In this document: in pieces, positions 1,237-47,753 of the stretch
How the letters are laid out: each line of letters begins with the position of its first letter
How positions within the stretch are numbered: position 1 is the first letter of the stretch
Virus record (IMG/VR): IMGVR_UViG_3300031992_000025
Coordinates: 97,932 to 146,538 of that record
Reading direction: 5' to 3' (one strand)
Length of the DNA: 48,607 bases
DNA from: a virus
Taxonomy: Duplodnaviria; Heunggongvirae; Uroviricota; Caudoviricetes
The notes under the pieces: model-generated
What the model was told of the DNA's origin: nothing
Seen by the model: only the letters and a program-made list of their open reading frames with translations
Databases searched by the model: none
Program-made: the position numbers and the translations under genes

Positions 1237-1653
1237 ATGAAATATTTAATGGGTTCAAATTATTTTTTCTCAAAGTACAAAGACTTTACTCCTCATGATT
1301 TAGATACAATTGAGCTAGTAAATACAAAAGAATTTAGGTACAAACGTATAATTAGGGGTCAGGGTAAAGACATTTTTCAGCTTAGAAGAAAGCCAAAAGA
1401 AGAGCTAATCCAAGATGCATTAAGATCTAATTTACCAATGGTAATTGGCAAGTTTTTAATTCCCGAATTTAATGAAGAAATTGGCTTTGTAGTTGATGAT
1501 TTAAGAGAATTAAAACCATTAATTGACAAAATTGATGATAAGCATAAATATGAAAAAATTATTTATGATGCTTATTTAGAAAATGGCAAATTTGAATTAA
1601 CACAAGAGCAAAGAGATGCAGCTTACGCAGAATATAAAAAATACAGAAGCTAA
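1237..1653 (+). CDS. hypothetical protein (138 aa)
   Basis: ORF follows the previous stop and ends TAA; no recognisable motif. Confidence 0.7.
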   Translation: MKYLMGSNYFFSKYKDFTPHDLDTIELVNTKEFRYKRIIRGQGKDIFQLRRKPKEELIQDALRSNLPMVIGKFLIPEFNEEIGFVVDDLRELKPLIDKIDDKHKYEKIIYDAYLENGKFELTQEQRDAAYAEYKKYRS

Positions 1654-1657
1654 TTTT
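1649..1657 (+). promoter_or_regulatory. variant of late-type motif (GCTAATTTT)
   Basis: Resembles GCTAAATTA and lies just upstream of the AGAGGA RBS and the tail-fibre ATG at 1680; it has mismatches. Confidence 0.35.
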
Positions 1658-1679
1658 AAAAAGTAGAGGATAAGAGAAT

Positions 1680-4600
1680 ATGGCAGGAACTAAATATATT
1701 GAAGGCAGTTTAAACGTTACTGGTTCAGTTACATCAACAAGTAATCCACTAGAAGTAACAGCTAATAGAGTTACTTCTGTTTCAGCATTCTCAGATGACA
1801 ATCATTATCCTACAGCAAAAGCTGTTAATAGCGCTATCACCACAGCTATTAACGGAATTCCTGCATTTATGTTCTATAAGGGCACAGTCGGTGATAATGC
1901 TACGATTACATGAGCTAATTTACCTGCTGCGGCTACTACTAATTCCGGACATACTTATAAGGTAATTACTGCACATACTGCTGACACAAAATGTGCTGCC
2001 TGTAAAGTTGGCGATACAATTATTTCAAATGGTAGCACTTGAAATGTTATTCCTTCAGGTGATGATGTTGAAGACACCTGAAGAAATATTAAGGTAAATG
2101 GGACTGAATTTTTAGGAACTGGCTTATCTACTGGTGCAGTTAATTTTGTAAATGGAACTAATGTTACTATTACTACTGAGACAGTGAGTGGTTCTAAAAA
2201 TATTAAGATTTCATCTTCTGACCAATATACAGGAACAATTACAAAAGTAAAAACTACTGCTGGAGCTCATACTGCTATTGATGTTTCAAGTGGAGCCGCA
2301 ACTTTTAATATTCCAACAAAGACAAGTCATTTAACCAATGACAGTGGTTTTGTTACTTCTAGTGGTGTTACTAAAATTACTGCTGGAACTGGTTTAAATA
2401 CTACAAGTAATGATACTACTACTGATGGTGGCAATATTACATCTACTGGAACATTGTATTTAACTAAATCCGGAGTTACTGCTGGCACATATCAAGGACT
2501 TACTATAGATAAATATGGTCGTGTTACAGCTGCTTCAAATCAAGGATATCTAACAAGTGAAGTAGATACTCTTGGTACAGTATTAAATAGAGGTAATACA
2601 GCAACTACTGATATTAATTTTAATAATAAAGATTGGTATAATGCAGGTGTCCAAAAGACTGCTTACGATTATAATACCAATCAAAATCCAGCCACACAAT
2701 ACTGGTGGTATAAAATTACTCCTCCAGCAAGTAATGCTTCAGACAGATATTTCATTGCAGTAGAAGGAGATGTTAATTATCCAAGAGGTAGAGGTAATTA
2801 TATTTTAGATGTTTCTAACTATAATAATGGAACTTCTTATAATGTATCTCTTACAAATCTTGGCTCAACAAATAATAGTGATGGACACTTATTAGCTGTT
2901 GCAATAGATGGAAATGGTAATGTTTATGTGCAAGCAAATGCTGCCTGAACAAGCTATTTAAGATTTATTAGACATGGTGCAGCTACAACTCAAGCATATA
3001 CTCAAGTAGGTAAAGCTGCTTTTGGCACTGCATCTGGTTTTACCTCATTAAAAATGATTAAAGATGCTGGTTGCATTAGATTAAATGCAGGTAGTATTGA
3101 TAATACTGCTTCAAATACTGGACAAGCGCAAGTATTTGCAGATGTATTTATTGAAAATGGTACAAAACTTTCTAGTAAATATTTGACTACTCACCCAACA
3201 ATTACTTTGTCATCAAATTCTACCTCTACTCCTGCTAAGTTATCTTATAATGGCACCTTTACGGCAATTACAAGTATAACACAAGATGCTAATGGGCACG
3301 TCACTAAGTTTAATACTGCAACATATACTTTACCTGCGGATAGCAACACAAACTATTACCATACTCGAGTATATAGCTCTGGATTAAAAGTTAGTACTGG
3401 TACTGGAGTTAGTGATATGTATATTCCAGATGCATCTACAACACAAAAAGGTGTAACTCAATATACTGCTGCTAACTTAAATACTTGGATTAACCAATTA
3501 TCTACAGGAGATAGTGTTCCAGTAGATGCTGATTACTTCATCTCACAATATGTCGGTGGTGGTACAAGCACTACTACATTCCATCGTAGACCAGTATCAA
3601 AGATCTTTGATTATGTTAAAGGTAAATTATCAATTTCAAGTTCTAATAATACCGCACAATGGGGTAGTGCTGTTGTAGTTGGTACTGTTGGCGGAACTGA
3701 GCTTAAATTTACAATGCCTAACAATCCAGATAATAATACTGCTCATAGTCATAGTGCTGGAGTTGGTTTAACTGGAAGTGGAACTGCAGGAACAAGTGGT
3801 ACATATTCATATAAGGTTAATCTTGTTAATGAAACAGCAGCTTCAAATGCAGCAACATACGAAGCTGGTGGTACAAGTAAATTCTATGCAGTTCAATTAG
3901 ATAAAAACAACAAACTCGGCGTTTATGTTCCATGGACTGACACCGATACAAATACACATAATTCTCATAAAATCAATTCTGGATTAAAGTCTGACGGCAC
4001 TACTGATATTATGAGTGCTTCAGCTAGTTCTGGTGATATCACATTAGGTGATTCTGGAGTAACTGCTGGTGCTTATGGGGATAGCACTGCTCAAACACCT
4101 AATTATGGTGCAACATTTAAAGTTCCTTCAATTTCTGTTAATGCTAAAGGTATTGTTACCGATATTGGTGAGCATACTGTTCAAATCCCTGGAAATGAAG
4201 CCAGCAGTAATAGAGAGTTAGTCACATATACTTCTGGTGGTAGCTATACTATTCAAAATACAAAAGATTATTTATTTACAGAAACAGTTTCAGGGGCATT
4301 AAATCTTACTTGTGAATTTACCTCCAATTTTAATTCTGTATATCATATATTCTTATATGTAGGAGAGTCTGTTCCAACTGTAACTTTAGATACCACTGTA
4401 TCTGGTGGTAAGCCGATATTTTTAACTGATTATACTCTTTCAAATTTAAGTGTTTTATCATGCTATGAAATAACTATTATGGGTCGTTTTGTATATATTT
4501 ATAAACTTACTTACCCAATGTTTAACTTCTCAAAAAATTATGTCATACGTTTTCCTAATACTATTACATCATATGATGCCTACCAAAGCTTTACTCCAAC

Positions 4601-5192
4601 GCCTACAATGACTTCTGGTGGTAAATCTGTATCTACAGCTGTTTATATGAACCAAGATTTTGAAGTAACTATACCTACATCTAAGCCTTATACATTTACG
4701 ACAGCTGTATTCAAAAGTTCAGATGGGAATACTACCCTTTATTCAGTACCTTCAAGGATCCTTAGTGATAACCCTAGATCATTTGTAATACCTAAAAGTG
4801 TAATAAGTAATGATATTAATCAAGATTTTATAATGAATCTAGGTTTTGTATTAGATACTTATACTTTAACAATACAATGCCAAGGTGATAGTGTTCCGCG
4901 TTCTCAACTTACTGGACACCTTTATGGTTATAGTATTACCCGTAGTCGTTGGGTAGAGCTAACTAATTTTAGTTTGAGTACGGCTAGTACAACTGTAACT
5001 GCAATTTATTATGCATATTATAAGCTAGAAATATCTGGATTAACTGAAGGAACAGACTATACAAAAACAATAACAACATCTAATTTAACTACAACTACTG
5101 CTTATGAGAGTGCTGTTTATTATAATGGAAACAATACAGGTACTAATGCCAGTATTACTATTGCTATTACAGAAGTTTCTGCACAGGCATAA
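1680..5192 (+). CDS. long tail fibre/adhesin-like protein, 1170 aa with 4 TGA=Trp
   Basis: Track ORFs 1680, 2184 and 3054 share a frame and are interrupted only by TGA (1911, 2040, 2079, 2946). Thr/Ser/Gly-rich, with repeated fibre motifs SGVTAGTY..IDKYGRVT, SGVTAGAY..VNAKGIVT and ITQDANGHVT. Confidence 0.75.
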
Positions 5193-5210: not shown

Positions 5211-5220
5211 TTGTATAATA
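5211..5220 (+). promoter_or_regulatory. TTGTATAATA promoter (-10 like)
   Basis: Recurrent intergenic motif; ATG lies 5 nt after TATAAT with no SD (probably leaderless). Confidence 0.6.
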
Positions 5221-5224: not shown

Positions 5225-7201
5225 ATGAGAAATTTAAGAGTTATTCCAAGCGAAGATGCTATTGTTTTAAATAAAGCGCCAGTTTTAATAGAAACTGTTT
5301 TTGGACCAGCTGGCAGTGATATTATATCTGGGACAAGTTATAGCACAGGATTGGAGACTACAGTATTTATTAATAATGAAGCAAAACCATTTAAAATTAC
5401 CTATAGTTACAATAAATTTGGGCCACTTTATACACAAACTTCGACTGCTGGGGAAACTATAACTATTTCTTTGATAATAGACCTAAATGACTGTGGATCA
5501 TTGATGGCCGGTTTATTTAATACTAGATATTATACTACACGTTTGTATATTTATAGTATAACGCCACTAGATGGTACGACTTATGATGCTACAACAGCAG
5601 TTGTACGTTTTAGGGGGTACAAACCTGGTGATAGTGCAGATTTAGTTTATCTTTATAGCATTAACCAGACAGATAAGATGCTCTTTGGGGATAAGGAAAT
5701 TATATTTAATATAAGAGATGCCTTGGGTCCAAATATGGATGGCAGTAGTTCAAAAAATTGTCATATATATAATCCACGTAATAAATGGATCATAAACGGT
5801 TATTCAAGGGCAGGTAGTAGAACTGACCCTGTAGTAGTAGTTGATGCAGTAGATGAAACAACTATTTTAGATTATTTATGTGGAAATGATATAATTATTA
5901 GTGATGGGGCTATAAATACTAGTCAGTATGTTTCAAATACTCCAATAGCTTGATCAGCACTGTTAAATTCAGTTTCTTTGGGGGCTATAAATGAAACAGT
6001 ATGGGCCACATCTAAAATGACAAATGGTGCGGCTATTAATGGACAGACTTTAAGTTGAACAAAGCCATTAAAGCAGCTTTATTTATTAAATGGTACTATA
6101 TATGATCCGTTTGATAATGTTACTATGACTCTTAGCACAACTAATAAGCAGATTACTTTAAGTGGCGGGTCTAGCGGTACAGGCAGTGATCATAGTACAG
6201 ATACTTTTTCAGCTTCATTTTTATTATTATATACTGATGGCACCCAAGATAGGTTAAATTTAACTATGCCGGTAGATCATTATTATGATGCCCCATGTTT
6301 AGTTGCTGGTACAATAGTTAAGACACAGGCTGGAGATAAAAAAATTGAAGACATAATTTATTCAGACTTATTATTAACTTATGACGTATTTCGTGGTAAA
6401 TTATGTTATCAGCATCCAGCATTCATCAAAAAAGAGCATAATACAGAACAGTATTTATTAATTACTCTTACAGATAATACAGAAATAAAAATAGTACGAG
6501 AGCATAATTTTTATGACATTAAAAATAAAGTATTTTTAGATATTACAGATTATAATTATGATAAGTTAGACCTAGACAATATTTTATTTATGCATATTAA
6601 TGAGGATGGCAGTTTAGGCACTATTGGAATTAAATCTATAAAACCAATTGCTGATCATGTTACATTTTATACACTATTTACAAGTGGCACAATGTGCTAT
6701 TTTGCAGGAAATGTTTTAAATGGAAGTCCATATTTTAATTTTTTAGGCGGTATGAAAGACAATGATACATTAAATACAAATTTAATGGAAATAGCAGATA
6801 CTACAATGGGTCAGCTTCCATATCAGTCTTTTAAAGAAAATTTTGGTGCTTTATATGAGCCATTATATAAAAGTTGTTTATTAAACTATATTGGAATAGG
6901 CCTTTTGAGCAATCTTCATGAACAAACTAAAGAGGCAATCAGTGCGCATACAACTAATGATCCAGTTATTCGTTTCCGTGAAATAGTAAATACTTTTTGG
7001 GCAGATTTACAAACTTATGATAATGACCTTTGCTATCTTACTTTTAGATATAAGAATGGTACTGAGTCAAAAATACAAGCAAAATTTAAAGATACAATCT
7101 TAATTCCATTTGGTACATTTTATAATGTAGGAGACCGTAAAATATATCATAAAGATGATGCTTATATGGTTGAAATGAACACAGTATTTGAGGAGATATA
7201 A
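5225..7201 (+). CDS. 658-aa protein with internal Hint (intein-like/BIL) domain; 2 TGA=Trp
   Basis: Track ORFs 5225 and 6125 are in one frame, broken only by TGA 5951 and 6056. Hint motifs are P-CLVAGTIV..GDKKIEDI (6296), IVREHNF and YFAGNVLN (to 6721). Confidence 0.7.
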
Positions 7202-8491: not shown

Positions 8492-8501
8492 TTGTATAAT
8501 A
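8492..8501 (+). promoter_or_regulatory. TTGTATAATA promoter
   Basis: Recurrent motif followed by a GAGGT RBS; heads the thyA/folA operon. Confidence 0.65.
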
Positions 8502-13281: not shown

Positions 13282-13291
13282 TTGTATAATA
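13282..13291 (+). promoter_or_regulatory. TTGTATAATA promoter fused to a short hairpin/T-tract
   Basis: GGGC-TAAAAA-GCTC-T7-ATTGTATAAT, with ATG 5 nt downstream. Confidence 0.6.
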
Positions 13292-13295: not shown

Positions 13296-13553
13296 ATGAA
13301 TATATTTTTAATTATAATTGGTGCTATTTTATTGCTCATTTGTGGACCATTGTTTCTGGCTACACATACAGCAACTAAAAATCAAGATAATTGGAATGAT
13401 TTTTATAAGTTAGTAGAAGAAAAAAATCTACCGGCTTCTGAAGATACTATTTACCATTTGGTGTGTAAAATGAATTTTTGGTTTATGCTTGGAGTTATTC
13501 TAGGTTTATTTTTATTAACAGGTGGTATTATATTACAAATAACACTAAAATAA
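13296..13553 (+). CDS. small membrane protein (2 hydrophobic segments)
   Basis: Hydrophobic N- and C-terminal stretches. Confidence 0.7.
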   Translation: MNIFLIIIGAILLLICGPLFLATHTATKNQDNWNDFYKLVEEKNLPASEDTIYHLVCKMNFWFMLGVILGLFLLTGGIILQITLK

Positions 13554-14260: not shown

Positions 14261-15867
14261 TGAAAAATATTTTAGATATAACAAAAGGTCTTGGTATTCC
14301 TGATGAATATATAATTCCATATGGTTGGGACAAAGCTAAGATTGATTTAAAGTATAAAGAAGAATTAAAAAATAAAAAAGATGGCAAGTTAGTTTTAGTT
14401 ACTGCTATTACTCCAACAAAAGCTGGTGAAGGTAAAACAACAACTACTATTGGTCTTCATGATGGTTTAAGACGAATTGGAGTTAACTCATTAGCTGTTT
14501 TAAGAGAGCCAAGTTTAGGCCCAGTATTTGGAGTTAAAGGTGGTGCCGTTGGGGCCTTAAAGTCAACTATTATTCCAAGTGATGATATTAATCTTCATTT
14601 CACAGGTGATTTTCATGCTTTAACTTCTACCATTAATTTAATTGCAGCAATTATTGAAAATTCAGTATTTCAAGGTAATAAATTAAATATTAACCCAGAT
14701 AGAATTGTCTGGACTAGGGCCCTTGATATGAATGATAGGTCTCTTAGAGACATTACTGTTACAAGCTCTGACTCTAAGCATTCAATTACTCATAAATCAG
14801 AATTTGTTATTACAGTTGCTTCTGAACTTATGGCTATTTTCTGTATTGCTAATGATGAAGAAGAATTTTTAGACCGAACTGAAAAAATTATTGTTGCATA
14901 TACTTTTGATGAAAAGCCAATTACAGTTAAAGACTTAAATATTCGTGGTGCAATTAAAAAGTTAATGCATACTGCTATGAACCCAAATATTGTTCAAACT
15001 CTTGAAGAAAACCCTGTTTTAGTTCATGGTGGTCCATTTGCTAATATCGCTCATGGCTGTAATTCTGTAATTGCTACAAAACTTGGCTTAAAACTTGCTG
15101 ATGTAGTTGTCACTGAGGCCGGATTCGGTGCTGACCTTGGTGCAGAAAAATTCTTAGATATTAAATGTCAAAGAGCAGGTCTTAAACCAGATGCAATCGT
15201 CTTAGTTGCTACAGTTAGAGCTCTTAAACTTCATGGTGGAGTCAAATTTGATGACTTAGATAAAGAAAATGTTGAAGCAATGAAAGCTGGCATTTGTAAT
15301 CTTAAAAAGCATGCTGAAAATATGACTAGATATGGAGTGCCTGTTGTCATTACTGCAAATAGATTTCCAAGCGATACTGATGCAGAAATTGCAGAATTAA
15401 AAGCTTGGTGCATAGAAAATGGTTATAGATTTGCATTAAATGAAGGTGCTATTAAAGGCTCAGAAGGTGCTGTTGAATTAGCAACCACAGTTAAAAAAGT
15501 ATTAGATACTATTGAAGCAAACTTTACTCCTTTATACCCAATTGGTGATGAAAGCTATTCAATTAGAGATAAAATTGGCTTAATTTGTCAAAAAATATAT
15601 GGTGCCGGTAATGTCGTTTATACTGATTTAGCTAATGAACAAATAAATAAATATCAAGATATGGGTTATAGAGGCTTAGCTGTTTGTATGGCTAAAACTC
15701 CAAACTCTTTAACTGATGATGCAAAAGTCTTAGGCGCTCCAACTGGCTTTACTGTTACAGTTAGAGAAGTTAGACTTTCTGCTGGCGCTGGCTTTATTGT
15801 TCCACTTACTGGTGCTGTAATGACTATGCCAGGTCTTCCTAAAGAGCCACTTGCCTGTAAAATGTAG
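14260..15867 (+). CDS. fhs: formate--tetrahydrofolate ligase
   Basis: TAITPTKAGEGKTTT, LREPSLGPVFGVKGGA, LHFTGDFHA, HGGPFANIAHGCNS, VTEAGFG and TMPGLP motifs. Confidence 0.97.
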   Translation: MKNILDITKGLGIPDEYIIPYGWDKAKIDLKYKEELKNKKDGKLVLVTAITPTKAGEGKTTTTIGLHDGLRRIGVNSLAVLREPSLGPVFGVKGGAVGALKSTIIPSDDINLHFTGDFHALTSTINLIAAIIENSVFQGNKLNINPDRIVWTRALDMNDRSLRDITVTSSDSKHSITHKSEFVITVASELMAIFCIANDEEEFLDRTEKIIVAYTFDEKPITVKDLNIRGAIKKLMHTAMNPNIVQTLEENPVLVHGGPFANIAHGCNSVIATKLGLKLADVVVTEAGFGADLGAEKFLDIKCQRAGLKPDAIVLVATVRALKLHGGVKFDDLDKENVEAMKAGICNLKKHAENMTRYGVPVVITANRFPSDTDAEIAELKAWCIENGYRFALNEGAIKGSEGAVELATTVKKVLDTIEANFTPLYPIGDESYSIRDKIGLICQKIYGAGNVVYTDLANEQINKYQDMGYRGLAVCMAKTPNSLTDDAKVLGAPTGFTVTVREVRLSAGAGFIVPLTGAVMTMPGLPKEPLACKM

Positions 15868-16068: not shown

Positions 16069-16843
16069 AGAATATGTAGCTGCGAAAAAAGAAAGAATTA
16101 GACATGATTTAATTGGGGCAACTCCACTAAAGATGGTTATTGTTCAAGTAGGTCATGTCCCAGCATCTGATAGATATGTTAGAAATAAAGCCAAAGATGC
16201 TAATGAAGTTAATATTGACTGTGAAATTAACAACCTTCCAGAAGACATTCCAGAGGAGGAATTATTAAAGCTTTTACAAGGCTTAAACGAAGACGAAGGT
16301 GTTATAGGTTATTTAGTTCAATTACCGCTTCCAAAACATATCTCTGAAGAAAAAGTTAAACTTGCTATTGCTCCTGAAAAAGATATTGATGGCTTCCACC
16401 CATTATCTAAAACAGTTCCAGCAACTCCTCTTGGAATTTATAATTATTTAAAAGACATGAAGTATGAATTCAAAGGTAAGAATGCTGTTGTTATTGGTAG
16501 AAGCAATATTGTCGGTAAACCAATGGCGCAATTATTATTAAAAGAAAGTATGAATGTCACAGTTTTACATTCAAAAACAAGTGAAGCTGATAAAGCATTT
16601 TACTTAAAACATGCTGATTTAATTGTTGTTGCTACAGGCCATGAGCACACACTATCTTCTAAATATAAACTAAAAGCACGTGCAATAGTATTTGATGTCG
16701 GAATTAATGTCGGAGAAGATGGAAAACTTCATGGAGACTGCGACCCAGACCTTCATGTAAAATTCCAGAGTCCGGTCCCCGGTGGTGTCGGGCTTCTGAC
16801 AAGAATTGCAGTCATTGATAATTTAATAGAGCTTAGTAAATAA
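16055..16843 (+). CDS. folD: methylenetetrahydrofolate dehydrogenase/cyclohydrolase (start revised to 16055)
   Basis: YVRNK, LVQLPLP, EKDIDGFHP, PATP.G, VIGRSNIVGKP, DVGIN and PVPGGVGLLT motifs; GGAGG RBS before 16055. Confidence 0.95.
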   Translation: MQIIKEYVAAKKERIRHDLIGATPLKMVIVQVGHVPASDRYVRNKAKDANEVNIDCEINNLPEDIPEEELLKLLQGLNEDEGVIGYLVQLPLPKHISEEKVKLAIAPEKDIDGFHPLSKTVPATPLGIYNYLKDMKYEFKGKNAVVIGRSNIVGKPMAQLLLKESMNVTVLHSKTSEADKAFYLKHADLIVVATGHEHTLSSKYKLKARAIVFDVGINVGEDGKLHGDCDPDLHVKFQSPVPGGVGLLTRIAVIDNLIELSK

Positions 16844-16851
16844 GCTCTTTT
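16828..16851 (+). terminator. intrinsic terminator
   Basis: AGAGCTTA-GTAAA-TAAGCTCT stem plus T tract at the folD end. Confidence 0.75.
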
Positions 16852-16856
16852 ATTTT

Positions 16857-16868
16857 GCTAAATTATAT
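16857..16868 (+). promoter_or_regulatory. GCTAAATTATAT late-type promoter motif
   Basis: Occupies the same position before ATATTGAGGT as GTATAAT does at 8492; recurs at 19102, 23056 and 47745. Confidence 0.6.
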
Positions 16869-16882: not shown

Positions 16883-17602
16883 ATGGAATATAAAAGACTA
16901 AATTTTGAAGACTATTTTACAATTTGCTCACGTAATTGAAACCATATTGAAACTGATTTAGAGTTAGCAGAATATGAGCAAGTTAAATATACTTATAAAA
17001 AGCGTGAATTTATTGCTGAATATCAAGTAAGATTTGATGAAGCACGTAATTGTATTCAAGTTATTTTGCAAGAAACTAATGAACAATCTGATTGAATTGT
17101 TAATTTTAGTTTTCCAAAAAAGATTTATGATAAATTTACCTATGAAGGTGAAGTTATTCAGTTAAAAGCTCACGGTGGCTGGAGCAGAATGTGGCTTGCT
17201 CTCCAAGATATTGTTAGAGAAAAAGTCAGAGATTTATTATTAAAACACCCAGGCTGCTTTATTGAAGTATTTGGCTGGTCTCTTGGTTCAGGAATTGCAA
17301 GCTTAGCTGCAGAAGATATTCACTTTAAATTTGGAGTAAAACCTTATTTATATACTTATGGAAGTGTTAAGCCATTCTTTGGCAAAAAGACTTTAAATTA
17401 TGTTAGAAGTTGTTGTGAAAAAGCATACAATTTCTATGATCATTGTGATGTTGTTGGCTACATGGTGCCATTTTTAGGCTGAGGTGCAATTAATCATTAT
17501 AAAGTTAAATTAGAAAAGCATTTCTGCATTACTAAATTATTTAACCCAATGAAATATCATACACAATATCACACACCAGAGCTTTATACCGAGGTTGAGT
17601 AA
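16883..17602 (+). CDS. class 3 lipase-like alpha/beta hydrolase, 239 aa with 3 TGA=Trp
   Basis: SDW(TGA)IVN, AHGGW, nucleophile elbow GWSLG, YTYGS, DVVGYMVP and a C-terminal His. TGA at 16937, 17093 and 17480; TAA at 17602. Confidence 0.75.
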
Positions 17603-17604: not shown

Positions 17605-18009
17605 ATGGAATTTTTTGAAGCATTAAAAACATTTATTATTGATACACGTAGTGAAGGCTTAAAAGAAGTTACTGGCACCCAGTTAACAGATGAGTATTTT
17701 GCTCATAATGAGGGCCAGTATTCAAAATGGCACATTTCTGATATTGCAAGTGGTCTAGCTATAGCAGTTAAGCTTCCAACATTAGCGGCTTGTAAAGAAT
17801 GAATTAAAAATATTGATGATGAGACTTTAGCTAAGATTGAATCTGCAAAGTTAACTGACAAATATAAAGCGCAATGTGATAAAGTTGCAGCTTTTAAAAC
17901 TAAAACAGTTGAGTCATTTGATTTTATGGAAGCTTTTGAAGCCCTAGATGATTTAGAAAAAGATAGTGAACAAAAGTTATTTGGAGATGAACTAGGATGC
18001 AGCTTATAG
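17605..18009 (+). CDS. hypothetical protein, 134 aa with 1 TGA=Trp
   Basis: The frame continues past TGA 17800 to TAG 18009, filling the gap and overlapping the next start. Confidence 0.7.
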
Positions 18010-18791: not shown

Positions 18792-19097
18792 ATGGACAAA
18801 ATATTTATAGAGCATAAAGACTATCTCCCAGATGGTTGGACATTTGAAAAAATTGAAAAATTATTAGAAGCAAAACAATTAAAGCCGCTCACAAAAGAGG
18901 CGTTATCTGAAATTGTTTCAGAAGAATGCTTAAATATGACTGAAGATGAGTTAATGGAATATCTTGCTAAATATGAGAAAGATAAGCAAATAATTCCACC
19001 TCATATGGCTACTTATCAGCCACAAATGTCATATGCAGAAGGTCTTGATGAAAACGATGAATTAAATCAAGATTTTCCAGAGCCAGAAGACAAATAA
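18792..19097 (+). CDS. acidic hypothetical protein
   Basis: AGGAG RBS; 101 aa. Confidence 0.7.
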   Translation: MDKIFIEHKDYLPDGWTFEKIEKLLEAKQLKPLTKEALSEIVSEECLNMTEDELMEYLAKYEKDKQIIPPHMATYQPQMSYAEGLDENDELNQDFPEPEDK

Positions 19098-19101: not shown

Positions 19102-19110
19102 GCTAAATTA
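19102..19110 (+). promoter_or_regulatory. GCTAAATTA late-type promoter motif
   Basis: Exact motif copy with no substantial ORF downstream before a terminator. Confidence 0.5.
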
Positions 19111-19258
19111 AATGAGCATATGAGTGCTCAAAACAAGATAAAATATCAACGATATTTAACTTAAAAGATACTGTAAATGATACTTAAAAAGATACTATTG
19201 CATTATTTATATTAAGTTGAATATCGCTCGAAAAAATTGAGCGATATTTTATTTTTAT
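19111..19258 (+). ncRNA. candidate structured small RNA (alternatively an origin/operator region)
   Basis: Lies between the motif and a strong terminator. 14-bp stem 19151-19164/19212-19225 enclosing three GATACT repeats; terminal hairpin 19220-19248. Confidence 0.35.
19220..19256 (+). terminator. intrinsic terminator
   Basis: AATATCGCTC...GAGCGATATT perfect 10-bp stem followed by TTATTTTT. Confidence 0.75.
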
Positions 19259-19280
19259 ACACATTTTAAGACAAATATTA

Positions 19281-19290
19281 TTGTATAATA
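19281..19290 (+). promoter_or_regulatory. TTGTATAATA promoter of the dut-dnaC-dnaB-primase operon
   Basis: Recurrent motif followed by an AAAGGA RBS. Confidence 0.65.
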
Positions 19291-23020: not shown

Positions 23021-23055
23021 TATTAAAAAACATTAAAAAACATTAAAATTTATTT

Positions 23056-23067
23056 GCTAAATTATAT
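23056..23067 (+). promoter_or_regulatory. GCTAAATTATAT late-type promoter motif
   Basis: Exact copy followed by an AAGGAG RBS. Confidence 0.6.
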
Positions 23068-23086: not shown

Positions 23087-23695
23087 ATGAAAAAATGAGT
23101 TGTTTACTGTCATCTAAATAAAATTAATGGAAAACGCTATATTGGCATTACAAGCAAAAAGCCAAGTTATAGATGAGATAATGGGAAAGGCTATTGGTCA
23201 AGTAGCATTTTTAATAAAGCTATTCAAAAATATGGCTGAAATAATTTTGAGCACATTATATTAGAAACAGACTTGACTAGAGATGAAGCTAAGCTAAGAG
23301 AGCGCTATTGAATTTCTTACTATCATACTTATATTAAAGACCCAGCTTGTCATGGCTATAATGGTACAGAAGGTGGTGATATTCCTTGAAATATAGGAAA
23401 ATCATTATCACCAGAACAAAAAAGTAAATGAGAAACTAGTATTAAAAATAATGCTAATTGATCACACAAAGGTCAAAAACGTAGCTCAGAAGTAGTTCAA
23501 AAAATTAGGAATTCTCATAAAAAGTATTCAAAACAAGTTTTATGTATAGAAACTGGTGAAATATTTGAATCAATTAAAGCTGCGGAACGTAAATATCATA
23601 ATAATCATATTAATGATTGCTGTAATGGTAAACGTAAAACTGCAGGAAAATTTCACTGAAAATTTATTAAAAACGACTCTAATAAAGTCGTATAA
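23087..23695 (+). mobile_element. free-standing GIY-YIG homing endonuclease, 202 aa with 8 TGA=Trp (absent from ORF track)
   Basis: VVYCHLNKINGKRYIGIT, RW..GKGY, AIQKYGW.NF, GYNGTEGG and a C-terminal NUMOD1-like VLCIETGEIFESIKAAER..CCNGKRKTAGKFHWKF. Confidence 0.88.
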
Positions 23696-23697
23696 TA
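23687..23697 (+). promoter_or_regulatory. GTCGTATAATA promoter variant upstream of ssb
   Basis: GTATAATA core overlapping the endonuclease stop codon. Confidence 0.5.
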
Positions 23698-28197: not shown

Positions 28198-29325
28198 ATG
28201 ATTATCAAAACAAAAGATTTTGCCGAAGTTGCAAATAAGATTAAAGAAGCAGTTAGCTTAGATGAAAATGCAGCTAACTTAGAAGTAGTTGCTAAAGGAA
28301 CAAGTTTATTCTTAAACGTCACTAATAGAGAATTCTATGTTTCTGTTAAATATGACCTTACAGAAGAAACAAACTTTGCTGCTACGGTTGATGCTTCATT
28401 ATTCTTAGACCTTGTTTCTCAAATCACAGCTGAAACATTCAATTTAACTGTTGAAGGCCCAGCTTTAATTGTTGCTTCTGGTAAAAGTAAATATAAATTA
28501 CCAATGATTTATGATAATGATAAACTTATGAGTTTACCTGTTATTAAAATCGGCAATAAAACTGTTGAAATGCCAATTAGTTTTGACATTTTAGATAGTA
28601 TTTTAAATGTTAATAGTAAAGAAATTGCTAAAGTCAAAAAAATGGAAGTCAACGAACTTCAAAAGATGTATTATATTGATGAAACAGGTTGCTTCACATT
28701 TACAACTGGTGCCTGTGTTAATAGCTTTACTTTAGAAAAGCCTGTAAAACTCTTATTAAATGAGAAAATTGTCAAGTTATTTAAATTATTTAAAGATGAT
28801 GTTTTATTTAGCTTAGGCCAAGATCCACTTCCAAATGGAACCTCCCGAACTAAGATTACTTTAGAAACAGCAAATGTCTATTTAGCAGCTATTATTACAA
28901 GTGATGATGACTTAATTAATAAAGTTCAAGGTCCTTGTATTGCTACAAAACGTTTTATCTCTGAAGCTTATACTCACCACGTTGTATTATCTGCTAAAGA
29001 AGTATCTGCAGCCATTAATAGATTAATGTTATTCACAAAAAATAGCGTTGATAAAGCTAATATGGCATTTATTCAAGCAACCGTGGTCATTGATCCAGAT
29101 GAATTAGTCATCAAAGATAAGTTTGGTAATATGGAAACTGTTACTGTCGAAAACGGTAGTTATGTTGATGAAAGCTATACAATGGACATTAACTTAGCTG
29201 ATGTTAAATTAATTACTGATTCATGCAAGGGTGAGCATGTTACAATGAATTGTGGTAATCATAAGTCTGTTGTATTTGTCCGTGGAAATATCAGCAACTT
29301 AGTTCCTGAATGCAAGAAAGACTAA
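28198..29325 (+). CDS. beta-clamp (DnaN)-like sliding clamp
   Basis: 375 aa, beta-clamp size. LEVVAKGTSLFLNVTNREFYV, ATVDASLF and SGKSKYKLP follow the DnaN N-domain pattern; clamp-loader genes lie nearby. Confidence 0.7.
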   Translation: MIIKTKDFAEVANKIKEAVSLDENAANLEVVAKGTSLFLNVTNREFYVSVKYDLTEETNFAATVDASLFLDLVSQITAETFNLTVEGPALIVASGKSKYKLPMIYDNDKLMSLPVIKIGNKTVEMPISFDILDSILNVNSKEIAKVKKMEVNELQKMYYIDETGCFTFTTGACVNSFTLEKPVKLLLNEKIVKLFKLFKDDVLFSLGQDPLPNGTSRTKITLETANVYLAAIITSDDDLINKVQGPCIATKRFISEAYTHHVVLSAKEVSAAINRLMLFTKNSVDKANMAFIQATVVIDPDELVIKDKFGNMETVTVENGSYVDESYTMDINLADVKLITDSCKGEHVTMNCGNHKSVVFVRGNISNLVPECKKD

Positions 29326-32322: not shown

Positions 32323-32355
32323 GGGCCAAAACACTGGCCCTTTTATTGTATAATA
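32323..32355 (+). terminator. terminator hairpin fused to a TTGTATAATA promoter
   Basis: GGGCCA-AAACAC-TGGCCC-TTTT-ATTGTATAATA. Confidence 0.7.
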
Positions 32356-32741: not shown

Positions 32742-33755
32742 ATGGGACAATCATTAGCTGTTAAATATCGTCCAAAAACACTTGAAGATGTCTGTGGACA
32801 AAGTATTACCGTTAAAATCTTAGAGAAAGCAATCGAGCAAAAGAATTTTAAACATGCTTATCTTTTTGCTGGTGATTCTGGGTGTGGTAAAACAACCTGT
32901 GCTCGTGCATTTGCTAATGCTATTAATCAAGGCTTAGGCCAACCTATTGAATTAGACGCCGCAAGCCAACGTGATATTGAAACAATTAGAGCTATTACAA
33001 ACTCAGCTAATGAAAGAAGTTTAGATAGTGAATATAAAGTATTTATCATTGATGAATGTCAATCTTATACAATTGTTCAATGGCAAGCATTTTTAAAAGC
33101 TATTGAAGAAACTCCTGAATATGCTATTTTCATGTTTTGCACGACTGAGCCAAATAAGCTTCCAGCCACAATCTTAAACCGTATTCAACGTTATAATATT
33201 ACAAAAATTGACGCTGAAACCATTAAGAATAGACTAATTTATATTTGTGAGCAAGAAGGCTTTACTAATTATGAAGCAACTTGTGATTTAATTAGCAAGA
33301 TTTCTAATGGTTGTATGCGTGATGCTATTATGAAGCTTGAACAATGCTCTAATTATTCAAAAGATCTTAGCCCAGAAAATGCTAAGCTTATTTTGGCAGA
33401 TATTTCTTATGAAGCAATGTTTAGATTAACTGTTGCTTTACAAGATAAGCAAGAAAACCAAGTTTTAGAGATTATTGAAAAGCTCTATAATAGTGGCAAT
33501 GATTTAAAGACATTTATTAATTCATATTTAGAATTCATTTTAGATTTAACTAAATATATTTTATTCAAAAATATGCAATTAACTAACATTCCTGCTTACT
33601 TAGAGCCAGCTGTTAAGCAAACCATTCAAATTAATGATAGCTTAAACTGGTTTAAGGCTTTTGCTGACTTACTACTTAACATCAAAACTGAAATTAAATA
33701 TGATACTTCTTATAAGTCAACAATTGAAGCATACTTATTGAGGGCCTGTAGATAA
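32742..33755 (+). CDS. dnaX: clamp loader ATPase, DnaX gamma/tau-like
   Basis: LAVKYRP..EDVCGQ, HAYLFAGDSGCGKTT, IELDAAS, KVFIIDE, FLKAIEE and MRDA motifs. Confidence 0.88.
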   Translation: MGQSLAVKYRPKTLEDVCGQSITVKILEKAIEQKNFKHAYLFAGDSGCGKTTCARAFANAINQGLGQPIELDAASQRDIETIRAITNSANERSLDSEYKVFIIDECQSYTIVQWQAFLKAIEETPEYAIFMFCTTEPNKLPATILNRIQRYNITKIDAETIKNRLIYICEQEGFTNYEATCDLISKISNGCMRDAIMKLEQCSNYSKDLSPENAKLILADISYEAMFRLTVALQDKQENQVLEIIEKLYNSGNDLKTFINSYLEFILDLTKYILFKNMQLTNIPAYLEPAVKQTIQINDSLNWFKAFADLLLNIKTEIKYDTSYKSTIEAYLLRACR

Positions 33756-35464: not shown

Positions 35465-36388
35465 ATGGCAGCAAATAACAAAATGTCTTATTCAAAAATG
35501 GACTGCTACAAACAATGTGGCTGGAAATTTTTACTTCAATATATTGAAGGTCCATATATTAGCACTCCTGGTATTGCATTAGATGTTGGAACTATGATTC
35601 ATGATACTGAAGAAAAAATTGCTAATGCTATTAAAGATGGCCTTCCAATTGATTACGTTGCTCTTAAAAATAATATTATTGTAAAGACAATAGAAATTGA
35701 GCATAAGTTTCCAAAAGACTTTTTAGAAAAAGACAAGACTGACAGACTCTATAAAGAAAAGATTTATGAATATCTTGAAAAAGGTATTTATCGTCTTGAA
35801 ACCTATATGAATGAACACCCAGAGCTTGAAATTGTCGGTGCTGAAATTCCATTTAAATATGATTTAATGGACTTTACTTTCTCAGGCAAAATTGACCGTT
35901 TATTTAGAAACAAAGTTACTAATGAATACATCTGTCAAGATATTAAGACCTGGCCAAAACCAGCTGATGATAAAGACGTTCCAACTCCACTTCAATTTGT
36001 AGTTTATACAAAAGCTATTAAAGAAATGTATGGCGTCTTAAATGAAGAAATCAGTTGTGCATATGATCTTCCATTCTGTAATATGATTCAAGCAGTTGGA
36101 ACAAAAGGCTATATGAACCGTGGTATGAAGAAAATTGAAGAGCTTCTTAATGGAATTAAAAACGGTGAATATAAGCCTAACCCAAGCCCACTCTGCCATT
36201 GGTGCACATATTGTGCTACAAACCCAAATCAACCAAAAGACCCAAATGCACATAATAGATGCCCATATCACTCACTTTGGACCAAAGAAAAAGAAAGCTA
36301 TGCTGTTGCTAACAAGTGGGAAGGTATGGAAAAACACAAAGAAATTTTAGAAAGTTATATTAAAAATGGCCCTAATTTAGCCGTATAA
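35465..36388 (+). CDS. Cas4/AddB-like PD-(D/E)xK exonuclease with Fe-S cysteines
   Basis: SYSKMDCYKQC, SGKIDR, QDIKT, QFVVY and PSPLCHWCTYC motifs. Confidence 0.8.
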   Translation: MAANNKMSYSKMDCYKQCGWKFLLQYIEGPYISTPGIALDVGTMIHDTEEKIANAIKDGLPIDYVALKNNIIVKTIEIEHKFPKDFLEKDKTDRLYKEKIYEYLEKGIYRLETYMNEHPELEIVGAEIPFKYDLMDFTFSGKIDRLFRNKVTNEYICQDIKTWPKPADDKDVPTPLQFVVYTKAIKEMYGVLNEEISCAYDLPFCNMIQAVGTKGYMNRGMKKIEELLNGIKNGEYKPNPSPLCHWCTYCATNPNQPKDPNAHNRCPYHSLWTKEKESYAVANKWEGMEKHKEILESYIKNGPNLAV

Positions 36389-36390
36389 TA
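36381..36390 (+). promoter_or_regulatory. CCGTATAATA promoter variant
   Basis: GTATAATA core overlapping the upstream stop codon. Confidence 0.5.
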
Positions 36391-37795: not shown

Positions 37796-37828
37796 AAGAG
37801 CTTAATGCTCTTTTTTTATTGTATAATA
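37796..37828 (+). terminator. terminator hairpin fused to a TTGTATAATA promoter
   Basis: AAGAGC-TTAAT-GCTCTT-T tract-ATTGTATAATA. Confidence 0.7.
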
Positions 37829-37835: not shown

Positions 37836-38867
37836 ATGAAAGTTTTAATATATACAGATCCGCACTTTTGCGAAAAGTTTTCCATCATTACTAAGATGGG
37901 AGACAAATATACTACTCGTTTAGAGAATCAAATTAAATCAATTAATTGGGCTGAAAATTTAGCTTATGAGAAAGGCTGCCAATATGTTATTTGTGCTGGT
38001 GACTTTTTTGATAAAGCCAACTTGACTCAACAAGAATTGACTGCTCTAAACGATATTCAATGGGCACCAATGTGCGCTCATTATTTCTTAGTCGGCAATC
38101 ATGAAAGTGAAGAAAACGATTTACACTATAATTCAACTGAGGTCTTACAACAAGATCGTAGAAGTAATTTTATTGTTGCTGAACCAAGACTTTTAGAAGA
38201 GCCTGGTTTTGAGCTTGCTTTCTTACCTTATATTACAGAAGCAAGAAGACAAGAAGCTAAAGATTATTTCCCAGAGCCAAAAGCTAAAAGACTATTAATT
38301 TCACACAATGACCTATTTGGAATTCAAATGGGTCCGGCTATTTCTACCGTTGGTTTTAAGCCAGAAGACTTAGCATCTATTTGTGATTTATGTGTTAATG
38401 GCCACTTACATAATGGTGTAAAGATTAATGAAAAAGTTATTAATCTTGGCAATTTAACAGGCAAAGACTTTGGTGAAGATGCTTTTAGATATAAGCATAA
38501 TGTAATGTTAGTTGACACCGATACAATGACATATGAGCTTATTGAAAACCCATATGCATTCAACTTTTATAAAATTGAAATTAACACAAAAGCAGATTTA
38601 GCTATTTTAAATAGATTATCTAGCAATGCAGTTGTTTCAATTAAATGCAGAGATACTATAGTAGCTGAATTAAAAGAGCTTATTATAACGCTACCAAATA
38701 TTGTCGAGTCTCGAATTGTAATTACAAGAGAAGTTGCTAATGGTGAAACTGCCGAAGACATCACAGACCTAACTGTAGACCAATATGTCAAGTTTGCTGA
38801 ATGCTGCAGAGAGAAGCTCGAAAATAATGCTATTCTTGAAGAAGAGCTCTCTGAAATACTAAAATAG
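37836..38867 (+). CDS. SbcD/Mre11-like metallophosphoesterase nuclease
   Basis: YTDPH, AGDFFD, VGNHE, ISHND and NGHLH motifs. Confidence 0.88.
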   Translation: MKVLIYTDPHFCEKFSIITKMGDKYTTRLENQIKSINWAENLAYEKGCQYVICAGDFFDKANLTQQELTALNDIQWAPMCAHYFLVGNHESEENDLHYNSTEVLQQDRRSNFIVAEPRLLEEPGFELAFLPYITEARRQEAKDYFPEPKAKRLLISHNDLFGIQMGPAISTVGFKPEDLASICDLCVNGHLHNGVKINEKVINLGNLTGKDFGEDAFRYKHNVMLVDTDTMTYELIENPYAFNFYKIEINTKADLAILNRLSSNAVVSIKCRDTIVAELKELIITLPNIVESRIVITREVANGETAEDITDLTVDQYVKFAECCREKLENNAILEEELSEILK

Positions 38868-38910
38868 CAAAATTAGATTTTAAAGTATATTATTGTATAA
38901 TATAAAGTAT

Positions 38911-39306: not shown

Positions 39307-41173
39307 TTTTATAGATTTTGAAAAAGTAATTATTCATAATTTTGGTAGTTATGGTCATACGGAATTAGACTTAAAAAGCAAAGGTTTTTGTTTAGTTTCT
39401 GGACAAAATAACTTCAAAAAAGATAATGCGCTCTCAAATGGCTCTGGTAAGAGTTTTATTTGGAGTGCTATTTGCTATACAATTACAGGCGAAACTTTAA
39501 ATGGCTTACATACTAATTTAAAAAATATTAATATTGAAGATGATGATAAGTGCTATGTAAAATTAATCTTTAAAGTTAATGCTGATGAGTATGAAATTAC
39601 AAGACATGCTTCACCTAAATCAGATTTACAAATTATTAAAAATGGTGCAGATGTTTCTGGTAAGACTTACCGTGAAAGCGAAAAGAAGCTTGGCGATTTA
39701 CTTCCAGACTTAACTCATGATTTAATTGCTTCAACAATTATTATTGGCCAAGGTATGCCAAATAAATTCTCTTCATTTAGCCCAAGTGGTCGTAAAGAAT
39801 TACTTGAAAAATTAACTAAGTCTGACTTCATGATTGAAGACATTAAAAATAGAGTTACTCTTAGACAAAGTGAATTAAGCAGAAAAATTCAAGAATGTAG
39901 TGATAGTATTTTAGTTAATGGAACTAAATTATCTACTGCTAAAAAAGACTTAGAAAGAATTGAAAAAGAGATTGCTGAAACTGTTAAACCAGATTTTGAT
40001 AAAGACCTTAAAGAAAGTGATGCTTTATTAAAATCTATTGATAAAGATGTTACAAGATTAACTGAGGCAAGAAAAGCAGTTGATGCTCAAATTGAAATAA
40101 CAAATGGTGCGCTTCTTACTATCGCGCACGAAAAAGCTGAAAAACTACGCATGTTATCAGAAAGCTACCACACTGCAATTGATCCTGTTAATCAAGAAAA
40201 ACTTACTGCTGAAACCACTATTAGAAATTTAACTGCAGAAGTTAATAGATTAAAAGCAGTTAAAGATACTTGTCCAACATGTGGTCAAAAATTACCTGGA
40301 GCCGTTAAACCAGATACATCTAGTCAAGAAGCTCAAATTAAAACTCTAAATGAAAGTTTAACTCCTCTTAAAAATAGAATTAATGAGATTAATACTAAGA
40401 GTGCTGAATATAAGCAACAAATTGAAAACGAAGTTGCTGATAAAGAAACCAAATTAAATACTGAGATAGCTGGACTTAAAAAAGATAGAGATACCATTAT
40501 CAACGAACTAAATGATTGTTCCCAAAATTATAATACTGAAAAGGAAAGATATAGCAAACTTACTTTTGAAAAAGATAACTGGGACAAACACCAAAAATTC
40601 TTAAATGATTCTATTGCAGAATTACAAAAGTCTATTAATACATTAGACAACTTAGTAAATATTACTAATGATGCCAAAGTAGATTTAGAAGCTCACTTAG
40701 CAGTTGTTAAAAAAATGGATTCACTTGCTAAGAGAGACTTCCGTGGTTATTTATTAACAAATATCATTAATTATATTGATAAGAAGGCTAAAGATTATAG
40801 TGAAACTGTTTTTGGAACTAGAGACCTTAATGTTTATATTGATGGTAATGCCTTAGATATTTCTTATTGTAATAAAATGTTTGATAACTTATCAGGCGGA
40901 GAAAAACAAAGAGTAGACTTAATTCTACAATTTGCTATCAGAGATATGTTAAATGTTTATCTAAACTCTGGGGCCAATATCTTAGTATTAGATGAAATTA
41001 CAGACTTCCTTGATAAAACAAGTTGTAGCGCTGTAATGAAACTAATTGAAAAAGAGTTAAATACTATTGAGTCAGTATTTATCGTTAGCCACCATGCAGA
41101 TGAGCTTGGCCTTCCAGTAGACTCAGAAATTAAGGTAATTAAAGATACAAATGGCATTAGCCAAATTATATAA
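39299..41173 (+). CDS. SbcC/Rad50-like SMC ATPase
   Basis: NGSGKS, CPTCGQ zinc hook, LSGGE signature, LVLDE and IVSH motifs, plus coiled coils. Confidence 0.9.
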   Translation: MANFIDFEKVIIHNFGSYGHTELDLKSKGFCLVSGQNNFKKDNALSNGSGKSFIWSAICYTITGETLNGLHTNLKNINIEDDDKCYVKLIFKVNADEYEITRHASPKSDLQIIKNGADVSGKTYRESEKKLGDLLPDLTHDLIASTIIIGQGMPNKFSSFSPSGRKELLEKLTKSDFMIEDIKNRVTLRQSELSRKIQECSDSILVNGTKLSTAKKDLERIEKEIAETVKPDFDKDLKESDALLKSIDKDVTRLTEARKAVDAQIEITNGALLTIAHEKAEKLRMLSESYHTAIDPVNQEKLTAETTIRNLTAEVNRLKAVKDTCPTCGQKLPGAVKPDTSSQEAQIKTLNESLTPLKNRINEINTKSAEYKQQIENEVADKETKLNTEIAGLKKDRDTIINELNDCSQNYNTEKERYSKLTFEKDNWDKHQKFLNDSIAELQKSINTLDNLVNITNDAKVDLEAHLAVVKKMDSLAKRDFRGYLLTNIINYIDKKAKDYSETVFGTRDLNVYIDGNALDISYCNKMFDNLSGGEKQRVDLILQFAIRDMLNVYLNSGANILVLDEITDFLDKTSCSAVMKLIEKELNTIESVFIVSHHADELGLPVDSEIKVIKDTNGISQII

Positions 41174-41187: not shown

Positions 41188-42012
41188 ATGCAATGAAAGA
41201 AAGATCCAGATAAAAAATATACTGACCTCTGTATTTATATTGATGCTAATATTCAAAATATTGCTAACCCAGGTGAGCATCCCGATATTGAAAACACAGT
41301 ATATAATTATATCTGATTAGTTATTAAGGCACTAGCTATTAAAAAATGCATGTTTAATAACTTCCAAGATTATGACCCTTATGCATTCTATGGTGCAAAT
41401 CGAATATACTTTGCACTAAGAAAAAACATTTGAAACACGGGCAAAACGATTAAAGGTAAAGAAATTAAGCCAATTAAATCTTGTCTAAACTACATTAAAG
41501 CTCTTCTTTACCCAATGAAAATTGAGTACCAAAATGAAACATTTAGAGAAATTATTTCAGAAGAATTTGTTTCTAAAAAATTTGACTCTTTTACATTTAG
41601 AGAGCAAATGCGTAGTGGTGCAAGAGCAAGCCAAGGTGTTAATGAACAATTTAGAAGCTATGTGCAAGATGCATTTGTGCACATCGGTTCAATGGCTGAT
41701 GATGTATTAAAAAAATCACCATTTAGCCCAAGATCACTTGATTACAAAAAATTAAAAATATCATTAATGCTTAATGCAATTAACTCATTAAAGACTAAGA
41801 AAAAATTAGATTCAGATTTGCCTACAATTATTCTATGAAAACTTCCAAAGTCAATGTCAAGTTATGTTAGAATATTATTAAAAGAATTCTATTCAGAGAT
41901 TAAAACTGAGATTATGGAATGCCACAGAGCCGCAGATATTAGTGATGATGTGGTAGATAGAATGCTACAAAATGCTTCAGAAGATAGGGAGACATATGAA
42001 GACAAATATTAA
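41188..42012 (+). CDS. 274-aa protein with all 4 Trp encoded by TGA; candidate sigma-like/late transcription factor
   Basis: Open frame from ATG 41188 to TAA 42012 with TGA at 41194, 41314, 41431 and 41836, and an AAGGAG RBS. The CDS is well supported; the function is speculative. Confidence 0.6.
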
Positions 42013-42946: not shown

Positions 42947-42948
42947 TT

Positions 42949-44205: not shown

Positions 44206-44206
44206 T

Positions 44207-44569: not shown

Positions 44570-44586
44570 TAACTTATTCTTTTTTT

Positions 44587-44610: not shown

Positions 44611-44630
44611 TATTAAAAGTTATTTTTTTA

Positions 44631-44640
44631 TTGTATAATA
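44631..44640 (+). promoter_or_regulatory. TTGTATAATA promoter
   Basis: Recurrent motif followed by an AAAGGAG RBS. Confidence 0.65.
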
Positions 44641-44662
44641 TATATGAATTAAAGGAGATTTT

Positions 44663-45451: not shown

Positions 45452-45452
45452 T

Positions 45453-45665: not shown

Positions 45666-45675
45666 GGGAGCTAAT

Positions 45676-45828: not shown

Positions 45829-45839
45829 GAGGCTTATAA

Positions 45840-47684: not shown

Positions 47685-47698
47685 ATATTAATTAAAAT

Positions 47699-47724
47699 AG
47701 ACTGCTTTAAAGGCAGTCTTTTTA
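47699..47724 (+). terminator. intrinsic terminator
   Basis: AGACTGC-TTTAAAG-GCAGTCT-TTTT. Confidence 0.8.
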
Positions 47725-47744
47725 TTATTTGCTACTAATTAATT

Positions 47745-47753
47745 GCTAAATTA
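47745..47753 (+). promoter_or_regulatory. GCTAAATTA late-type promoter motif
   Basis: Exact copy after the topA terminator, ahead of a CAGGAG RBS. Confidence 0.6.

Follow-up and report, generated by a model that had tools for sequence, protein, structure and literature searches.

Bacillus phage SPO1, a large Firmicutes phage, redirects the host core polymerase by successive sigma-like factors, gp28 and then gp33/gp34; its middle and late promoters consist of two parts (-35 and -10), and recoding plays no role. Phage T4 also transcribes its late genes with the host core polymerase, from late promoters (TATAAATA) served by gp55, gp33, and the gp45 clamp. A further described group is that of TGA-to-Trp recoded gut and rumen phages (the Jade, Sapphire, and Agate clades), in which TGA stands for Trp in structural, lysis-type, and accessory genes while replication genes keep the standard code (Borges et al., bioRxiv 10.1101/2021.08.26.457843). 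In that survey, a suppressor tRNA was found in only part of the genomes, close relatives occurred with and without recoding, and the proposed model was a mid-infection code switch; promoters are mentioned 0 times. Recoding of late phage genes is therefore already published. Here, we analyze a 48,607-nucleotide (nt) window of a large uncultured rumen phage, bases 97932-146538 (the last third) of the single 146,538-bp IMG/VR virus record IMGVR_UViG_3300031992_000025, and focus on a nine-base motif, GCTAAATTA (class B), which looks like a promoter and marks the transcription units that carry in-frame TGA. We compare it with two other motifs, class A (YYGTATAATA; TTGTATAATA) and class E (TTTACA-N17-TGnTATAAT).

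The initial annotation of the window had proposed two promoter classes, A and B. Over the whole 146.5-kb record, both are real: class B occurs 24 times on the + strand and once on the - strand, and class A 49 times and 0 times, respectively. In the window alone, class A stands out (11 copies on + and 0 on -; 1.24 expected, 11 reached in 0/100 shuffles), but class B is not significant there, with four copies on + and one on -, at 36373 (5 copies vs 2.1 expected; 7/100 shuffles reach 5). A comparison of coding and intergenic frequencies, which had been suggested as a check, bears out the motif: 22 of 24 class B copies in the record are intergenic, vs a non-coding fraction of 16% (binomial 6e-16). 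The copies typically stand 30-60 nt before a start codon, and at least 10 lie directly behind a hairpin and T-run, i.e., an intrinsic terminator. The same bias is seen in 35 related loci (~570 kb), which hold 82 copies on + and 3 on -, 75 of the 82 being intergenic, and in the complete 223-kb relative G003 (35 vs 3). Class B is found across phages of 29-40% G+C, and five relatives retain the copy at 47745 behind topoisomerase (topoisomerases 73-90% identical) while its flanks diverge. Class B thus looks like a promoter by its strand specificity, its intergenic position at a set distance from start codons, its frequent place behind terminators, and its conservation between diverging flanks. A full-text literature search for the motif returned only unrelated primer sequences. 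The exact + strand copies in the window are as follows:

16857 to 16865, + strand: class B GCTAAATTA, directly behind the terminator at 16828-16856 and 26 nt before the lipase-like gene
19102 to 19110, + strand: class B, 5 nt past the stop of gene 18792-19097, heading a conserved non-coding stretch
23056 to 23064, + strand: class B, heading an inserted GIY-YIG homing-endonuclease gene
47745 to 47753, + strand: class B, behind the terminator at 47700-47730, the copy kept after the topoisomerase gene

Class B has the consensus waTTtGCTAAATTAwat, followed 2-5 nt downstream, at the expected transcription start, by a weak wwTG(a); none of the 24 sites has a -35-like hexamer at 16-18 nt. Intergenic DNA contains about as many one-mismatch copies on the - strand (8) as on the + strand (10), so class B is an all-or-none, invariant 9-mer. 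The degenerate "GCY" form in which the motif was first written is not supported, and three sites that had been listed as variants fall away, two because they are gene-end codons and all because one-mismatch copies equal background:

1649 to 1657, + strand: rejected variant GCTAATTTT, two mismatches, in the coding end (last codons) of gene 1237-1653
38867 to 38875, + strand: unsupported variant GCAAAATTA, which falls on the stop of the preceding gene and has a class A site after it; not above the background rate
41160 to 41168, + strand: rejected variant GCCAAATTA, the last codons of sbcC (S-Q-I-I-stop), for which orthologues carry other codons
1680 to 5192, + strand: gene for a 1170-amino-acid (aa) protein with 4 TGA, in a class B unit headed by a motif outside the window, further upstream at genome 94349

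We therefore rejected the site at 1649 as the driver of gene 1680-5192, which belongs to the unit headed at genome 94349. The reported TATTGAGGT, shared behind the class A site at 8492 and the class B site at 16857, is indeed present at both.

Two explanations other than a phage-specific promoter bear directly on the form of the motif. Strict invariance suits a specific binding protein, and GCTAAATTA might be the site of a phage DNA- or RNA-binding regulator in leaders (an activator, an anti-terminator, or a processing or translation signal) rather than a core promoter; the copy at 19102, with no terminator between it and the preceding stop codon, would be carried by read-through RNA. The terminator-adjacent copies speak against such a role, as no other promoter-like element lies in the gap between motif and start codon, and so do the lack of any intergenic copy on the other strand and the occurrence of the motif at the head of the inserted endonuclease cassette. 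Altogether, we consider a regulator site improbable.

The second explanation starts from geometry. Written as (T)TTGCTAAATTA, class B parses as TG-n followed by TAAATT, the spacing of an extended -10 element, with TG at -15/-14 and with A-11 and T-7 in the hexamer. Class B could then be an ordinary extended -10 read by the host primary sigma, its units being weaker or replication-dependent and TGA collecting there since the genes matter only late, and this would agree with the sequence searches of complete relatives, which found neither a sigma factor nor an RNA polymerase. However, class B differs from primary-sigma extended -10 promoters in its fixed hexamer TAAATT, fixed C at -13, fixed A after the hexamer, and absence of degeneracy. 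Primary-sigma -10 boxes are degenerate, whereas here nine positions are invariant, with no one-mismatch excess, in phages that differ widely in G+C; a conserved protein with a sigma-domain-2-like fold is also present (see below). We thus regard reading by the host sigma as unlikely.

In this phage, TGA is read as Trp: in the endonuclease encoded behind the class B copy at 23056, TGA codons 30, 51, 75, and 191 align with W in 79-119 of 120 homologues. The genes directly behind the exact class B sites of the window all contain TGA:

16883 to 17602, + strand: class-3-lipase-like gene, 3 TGA; first gene of its class B unit
23087 to 23695, + strand: GIY-YIG homing endonuclease, with 1 TGG and with 8 TGA, of which four align with near-invariant Trp
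47790 to 48605, + strand: first gene of a class B operon running off the contig end, 2 TGA

The initial annotation held that all six protein genes behind class B carry TGA; this stands for these three of three (3, 8, and 2 TGA), but not for those assigned through variant sites. Its statement on class A is confirmed, in that only two of the ten A-led first genes have TGA, those at 5225 (2 TGA) and 38911 (1 TGA). With the site at 41160 reassigned to class A, class B in the window covers 8 genes with 18 TGA/17 TGG and class A 54 genes with 10 TGA/103 TGG. We then assigned each of the 179 gene calls in the record to the nearest preceding intergenic motif, and the proposed genome-wide cross-tabulation of motif class with TGA upholds the association, as do the relatives:

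This record, units with TGA: class A 7/44, class B 16/20 (Fisher 1.3e-6)
This record, first genes with TGA: class A 4/41, class B 13/17
This record, genes with TGA: class A 10/117, class B 26/47
This record, codons: class A 18 TGA/283 TGG, class B 87 TGA/149 TGG
Related loci, first genes of units with TGA: class A 4/91, class B 19/54
G003, codons: class A 43 TGA/239 TGG, class B 338 TGA/117 TGG, class E 2 TGA/39 TGG

Class B therefore marks TGA-bearing units. Regional composition cannot explain the link, because the B-led lipase and endonuclease genes sit among class A genes without any TGA. A test for a 5' "gate" was negative, with TGA evenly spread along genes and no general 5' gate. In the record outside the window, at genome 32716-33564, two adjacent genes of a class A unit carry 5 and 2 TGA and no TGG, and these have no recognized promoter of their own.

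The genes headed by class B include nrdD, PhoH, lipase, homing endonucleases, and a DUF559 endonuclease-like protein, and the motif also heads long conserved operons encoding large carbohydrate-binding and fibre-type proteins. PHROGs and Pfam searches on B-led genes gave fibre-type and carbohydrate-binding hints only. The Pfam terminase and HK97-capsid models had no match in five genomes, and B-led capsid or packaging operons are thus not demonstrable. This gene content raises the question of whether class B and TGA mark origin instead of timing, that is, mobile or newly gained cassettes (homing endonucleases, morons) that bring their own promoter with them as they pass between recoded phages. 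The endonuclease gene and its class B copy at 23056 are an insertion absent from relatives, and the DUF559, PhoH, and lipase genes would fit the same pattern. However, class B heads the conserved carbohydrate-binding and fibre-type operons and, in five relatives, the operon after topoisomerase, and there are relatives with class B but almost no TGA, so we give a cassette origin little credence.

Those relatives also bear on the age of the system. G001, G002, and G004 carry both class B and the candidate class B reader described below, and almost no TGA in the sampled loci. This indicates that the promoter class and the factor are older than recoding, and the claim that the motif was co-selected with recoding is not supported. 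The pattern argues, from sequence comparison, that recoding was superimposed on class B genes in some lineages, where it reached the candidate factor as well.

In G003, the source of TGA decoding is visible: a Trp-like tRNA(UCA) gene lies directly behind TTGACG-N17-TTGTATAATA, an early host-type promoter. The genes that neighbor this suppressor have no counterpart in our record, which is classed as linear and is 64% complete (CheckV), and the tRNA(UCA) of this phage may thus lie in the missing third of the genome. Alternatively, the host may natively read TGA as Trp (code 4), in which case there would be no code switch and no lock, and TGA-poor genes would reflect history or expression level. 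The record has no tRNA(UCA) among its 38 tRNA genes (at 44-62 kb), and in a distant relative, L010, TGA is found even in the topoisomerase gene, both of which a code 4 host would accommodate. It would not account for the near absence of TGA from the 117 class A genes here and from the class E genes of G003, nor for the tRNA(UCA) carried by a complete relative, next to which the absence from an incomplete record counts for less; furthermore, standard-code hosts were predicted for such phages in the published survey (10.1101/2021.08.26.457843). We consider native TGA decoding by the host very unlikely.

A six-frame search of the record and four relatives (>=91% complete) found no T7-type RNA polymerase, beta-prime domain, Sigma70_r2, r4, or r4_2, and the host core polymerase is the likely enzyme since no phage RNA polymerase was detected. 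The negative Pfam sigma result is itself weak because T4 gp55, run as a control, also gets no Pfam sigma match. A weak Sigma70_r2 match in G001 (E 0.0076) was set aside, as it has no counterpart in this genome, and an open reading frame at genome 1243-2160 considered as sigma-like had no Pfam or PHROG match. The best candidate for a reader of class B is instead the following gene:

41188 to 42012, + strand: candidate sigma-like factor, 274 aa, with TGA at codons 3, 43, 82, and 217 and no TGG

All four Trp codons of this gene are therefore TGA. It sits 14 nt behind sbcC in a class A unit, without its own promoter, is single copy in five genomes (G000-G004), and encodes a member of a large, well-conserved family without a Pfam domain (roughly 400 family representatives). 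Each recoded relative examined has 2-5 TGA in this gene, and the TGA at codon 3 is found in the window, L006, L011, and G003. An AlphaFold model of residues 1-125 has a pLDDT (predicted local distance difference test) of 88. Comparison of this N-terminal domain with 48,161 chains by VIA-align places sigma domain 2 in 18 of the top 20 matches (Z 5.9-8.2, 78-107 aligned residues), led by ShbA (Z 8.2), with T4 gp55 (7d7d_F) second at Z 7.5 over 102 residues. The full-length model gives the same structural-search picture, and among BFVD viral models, the named weak matches are mostly late sigma factors. These models suggest that the N-terminal domain likely has a sigma domain 2-like fold, and we infer that the protein may act at class B promoters. 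The phage-sigma reader proposed in the initial annotation thus gains a candidate by fold, while no gp55-family or Pfam sigma match supports it by sequence. The nearest cultured structural match is an uncharacterized protein of Bacillus phage SP-15; we rejected this phage as a model for the motif, as its genome has no excess of GCTAAATTA (2 forward, 1 reverse).

Altogether, we favor, with confidence a little better than even, the reading that class B is a clade-specific later promoter, likely read by a phage sigma-like factor, where TGA has gathered via a code switch. The host RNA polymerase would be used throughout infection. Early genes, tRNAs, and replication genes, in which TGA is avoided, would be transcribed from host-type promoters of classes E and A, while class B would serve a later set made up of tail-fibre-type operons, accessory and homing-endonuclease genes, and a single small non-coding unit. 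Class B would be read by a phage sigma-like factor on the host core polymerase, for which the 274-aa protein is the best candidate. The opal-suppressor tRNA(UCA) would be made from an early-type promoter and class B genes translated afterwards, so that TGA read as Trp would pile up there. In recoded lineages, the candidate factor would itself need TGA read-through, placing the controls in series, from code switch to factor to class B transcription, rather than as two parallel locks. Our results favor this serial arrangement wherever recoding exists. A more specific form of the proposal is tentative, and we think it possible but doubtful: that the protein represents a new, Pfam-invisible sigma-like family that reads GCTAAATTA, that its early mRNA, made from a host promoter, is translated only once the opal suppressor is active (owing to the TGA at codon 3), and that recoding thereby licenses late transcription.

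Several points weigh against the later-promoter reading. Since class B fits the canonical extended -10 pattern, host sigma-A might suffice to read it, and nrdD and PhoH, although B-headed, do not look late. The sigma-like assignment comes from a ranking of folds, with Z values of 6-8 that are middling for helical domains, and Foldseek comparison of the 274-aa protein models with the PDB gave no significant match. Searches by sequence gave no link to sigma factors, whether by Pfam (the protein itself, and 32 or 62 family members), by profile search against the PDB, or by hhalign against gp55, and the gp55 PHROG families phrog_234 and phrog_12791 found nothing in G000-G004 at E<=1. The connection between candidate and motif consists solely of co-occurrence in five genomes, and the candidate gene is without TGA in G001, G002, and G004. 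Ten class A genes hold TGA. The tRNA(UCA) was not found among the tRNAs of this incomplete record by a custom scan or by BLAST with the G003 suppressor and an odd tRNA of another relative, L018. Finally, no transcription start came from two sheep-gut metatranscriptome runs, whose libraries contain parts of the window; they yielded short assembled contigs only, one spanning 23056, and showed no 5' ends.

Compared with T4, class B has the same general architecture, a near-invariant -10-type element without a -35 box and with a TAAAT core in common, and the host core polymerase would likewise be the enzyme, as no phage RNA polymerase was detected. In T4, too, late promoters stand before structural genes and free-standing homing endonucleases; our phage has a clamp (28198-29322) and a clamp loader (32742-33752) of its own, whose role at class B is putative; and the candidate N-terminal domain aligns to gp55. 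In contrast, the motif is GCTAAATTA with TG-n geometry, not TATAAATA, and the candidate, at 274 aa with an extra C-terminal domain, has no sequence similarity to gp55 families. The likeness to T4 late promoters drawn in the initial annotation therefore holds for the single invariant -10-type element lacking a -35 box, while the "late" timing is not supported, and nrdD, PhoH, lipase, and endonuclease genes are also B-headed. By analogy with SPO1, this would be a Firmicutes-type phage with a sigma-like factor on the host core, but class B has no -35 element and recoding is involved.

The recoding pattern matches that of the recoded phages described by Borges et al., and the early suppressor tRNA of G003 fits their mid-infection code switch; the difference is that the recoded set is here delimited by a sequence-defined promoter class and that the candidate late factor is itself recoded. 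Our analysis adds to this the rejection of the variant sites, the invariance of the 9-mer, replication in a complete suppressor-bearing relative, a motif that predates recoding, and a sigma-like, TGA-gated candidate. A promoter class that delimits recoded genes would make early and later genes separable in uncultured phages from sequence alone, which would improve gene calling in mixed-code genomes. It also puts forward a concrete regulator; if a sigma-like protein does read GCTAAATTA and is TGA-gated, the order of code-switch events becomes testable in vitro.

The other two motif classes resemble host promoters to different degrees. Class E, with 11 sites, all having the -35 box and all in the first 10 kb of the record, fully fits the extended -10 (TGnTATAAT) or Firmicutes -16 TRTG promoters of primary sigma, and by sequence is a canonical Firmicutes-type primary-sigma promoter. 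Class A, with consensus ttttaTTGTATAATAtaat, differs from these in that the TG directly abuts TATAAT. A TTTACA/TTGACA box at 16-18 nt accompanies 12 of the 55 intergenic class A copies of the record, mostly near tRNA arrays, and none of the 10 intergenic copies in the window, which usually lie behind a terminator. The 11th window copy, at 27793, is within the PolA gene. The ten sites listed in the initial annotation are all present, with one coordinate off by a base (23688, not 23687):

5211 to 5220, + strand: class A TTGTATAATA, with leaderless-type spacing (14 nt) to the ATG at 5225
8492 to 8501, + strand: class A, behind a terminator, without a -35 box
13282 to 13291, + strand: class A, 14 nt before the ATG at 13296
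19281 to 19290, + strand: class A, heading the helicase operon; the B-then-A pairing is kept in relatives
23688 to 23697, + strand: class A (TCGTATAATA), before the PolA operon
32346 to 32355, + strand: class A, behind a terminator
36381 to 36390, + strand: class A (CCGTATAATA), abutted by the sole minus-strand GCTAAATTA copy (36373-36381)
37819 to 37828, + strand: class A, behind a terminator
38893 to 38902, + strand: class A, heading a 131-aa gene, sbcC, and the sigma-like gene
44631 to 44640, + strand: class A, before the deformylase-topoisomerase unit

The minus-strand GCTAAATTA copy at 36373-36381 is probably due to chance. Some class A motifs stand only 12-16 nt before an ATG, in the window at 5211/5225, 13282/13296, and 38893/38911, and elsewhere at genome 14130, 14633, 21969, and 33832. 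This spacing leaves no room for a ribosome-binding site, which suggests leaderless mRNAs.

Class B and class A sites also occur in tandem. In five relatives, too, the B site at 19102 is paired with the A site at 19281, and the ~150 nt between them are conserved and non-coding:

19111 to 19272, + strand: conserved non-coding stretch separating B from A ahead of the helicase operon, with arms, GATACT repeats, and a terminator

This stretch contains long inverted-repeat arms (19137-19164 and 19212-19226) and three GATACT copies ~12 nt apart (19167, 19179, and 19191), and it ends in a terminator (19221-19256) with compensatory changes in the stem. It could represent a small RNA or a region resembling a replication origin. 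Outside the window, at genome 17807-17947, the class B motif that precedes nrdD has a hairpin and T-run after it and then a one-mismatch copy, GCTAAATTT, at 17872; this element may be a short RNA or attenuator. A tandem AAAAACATTA repeat at 23021-23055 immediately precedes the class B motif that belongs to the inserted endonuclease cassette.

The phage genome is estimated at ~225 kb, with relatives reaching 220-233 kb, one of them with terminal repeats. Megablast and tblastn against deposited phages gave no match. G+C is ~31%, and all credible genes are on the + strand. Those of the window include replication and nucleotide genes (PolA, DnaB, clamp, clamp loader, RecA, SbcC, topoisomerase, formate-tetrahydrofolate ligase, and deformylase) as well as accessory genes for the class-3 lipase-like protein, the GIY-YIG homing endonuclease, and a glycosyltransferase. 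Strong Shine-Dalgarno sites and the class E TTTACA/TRTG-TATAAT early promoters point to a Firmicutes-type host, as judged from these signals.

Neither motif occurs in 17 kb of the more distant L010 (IMGVR_UViG_3300021399_000368; topoisomerase 44% identical), whose topoisomerase gene has 5 TGA and 1 TGG; L010 appears to be a fully recoded lineage that uses other promoters. In L018, a 220-kb relative, an 89-nt tRNA-like gene at 16193-16281 has an anticodon loop containing UCA (ARAGORN: "tcac") and is possibly an unusual opal suppressor. A tRNA-like gene at genome 48045-48118, outside the window, scores 49 bits to the Rfam tRNA model and has a six-base anticodon loop, and ARAGORN finds the same oddity in L020 and L024, at 14989-15062.

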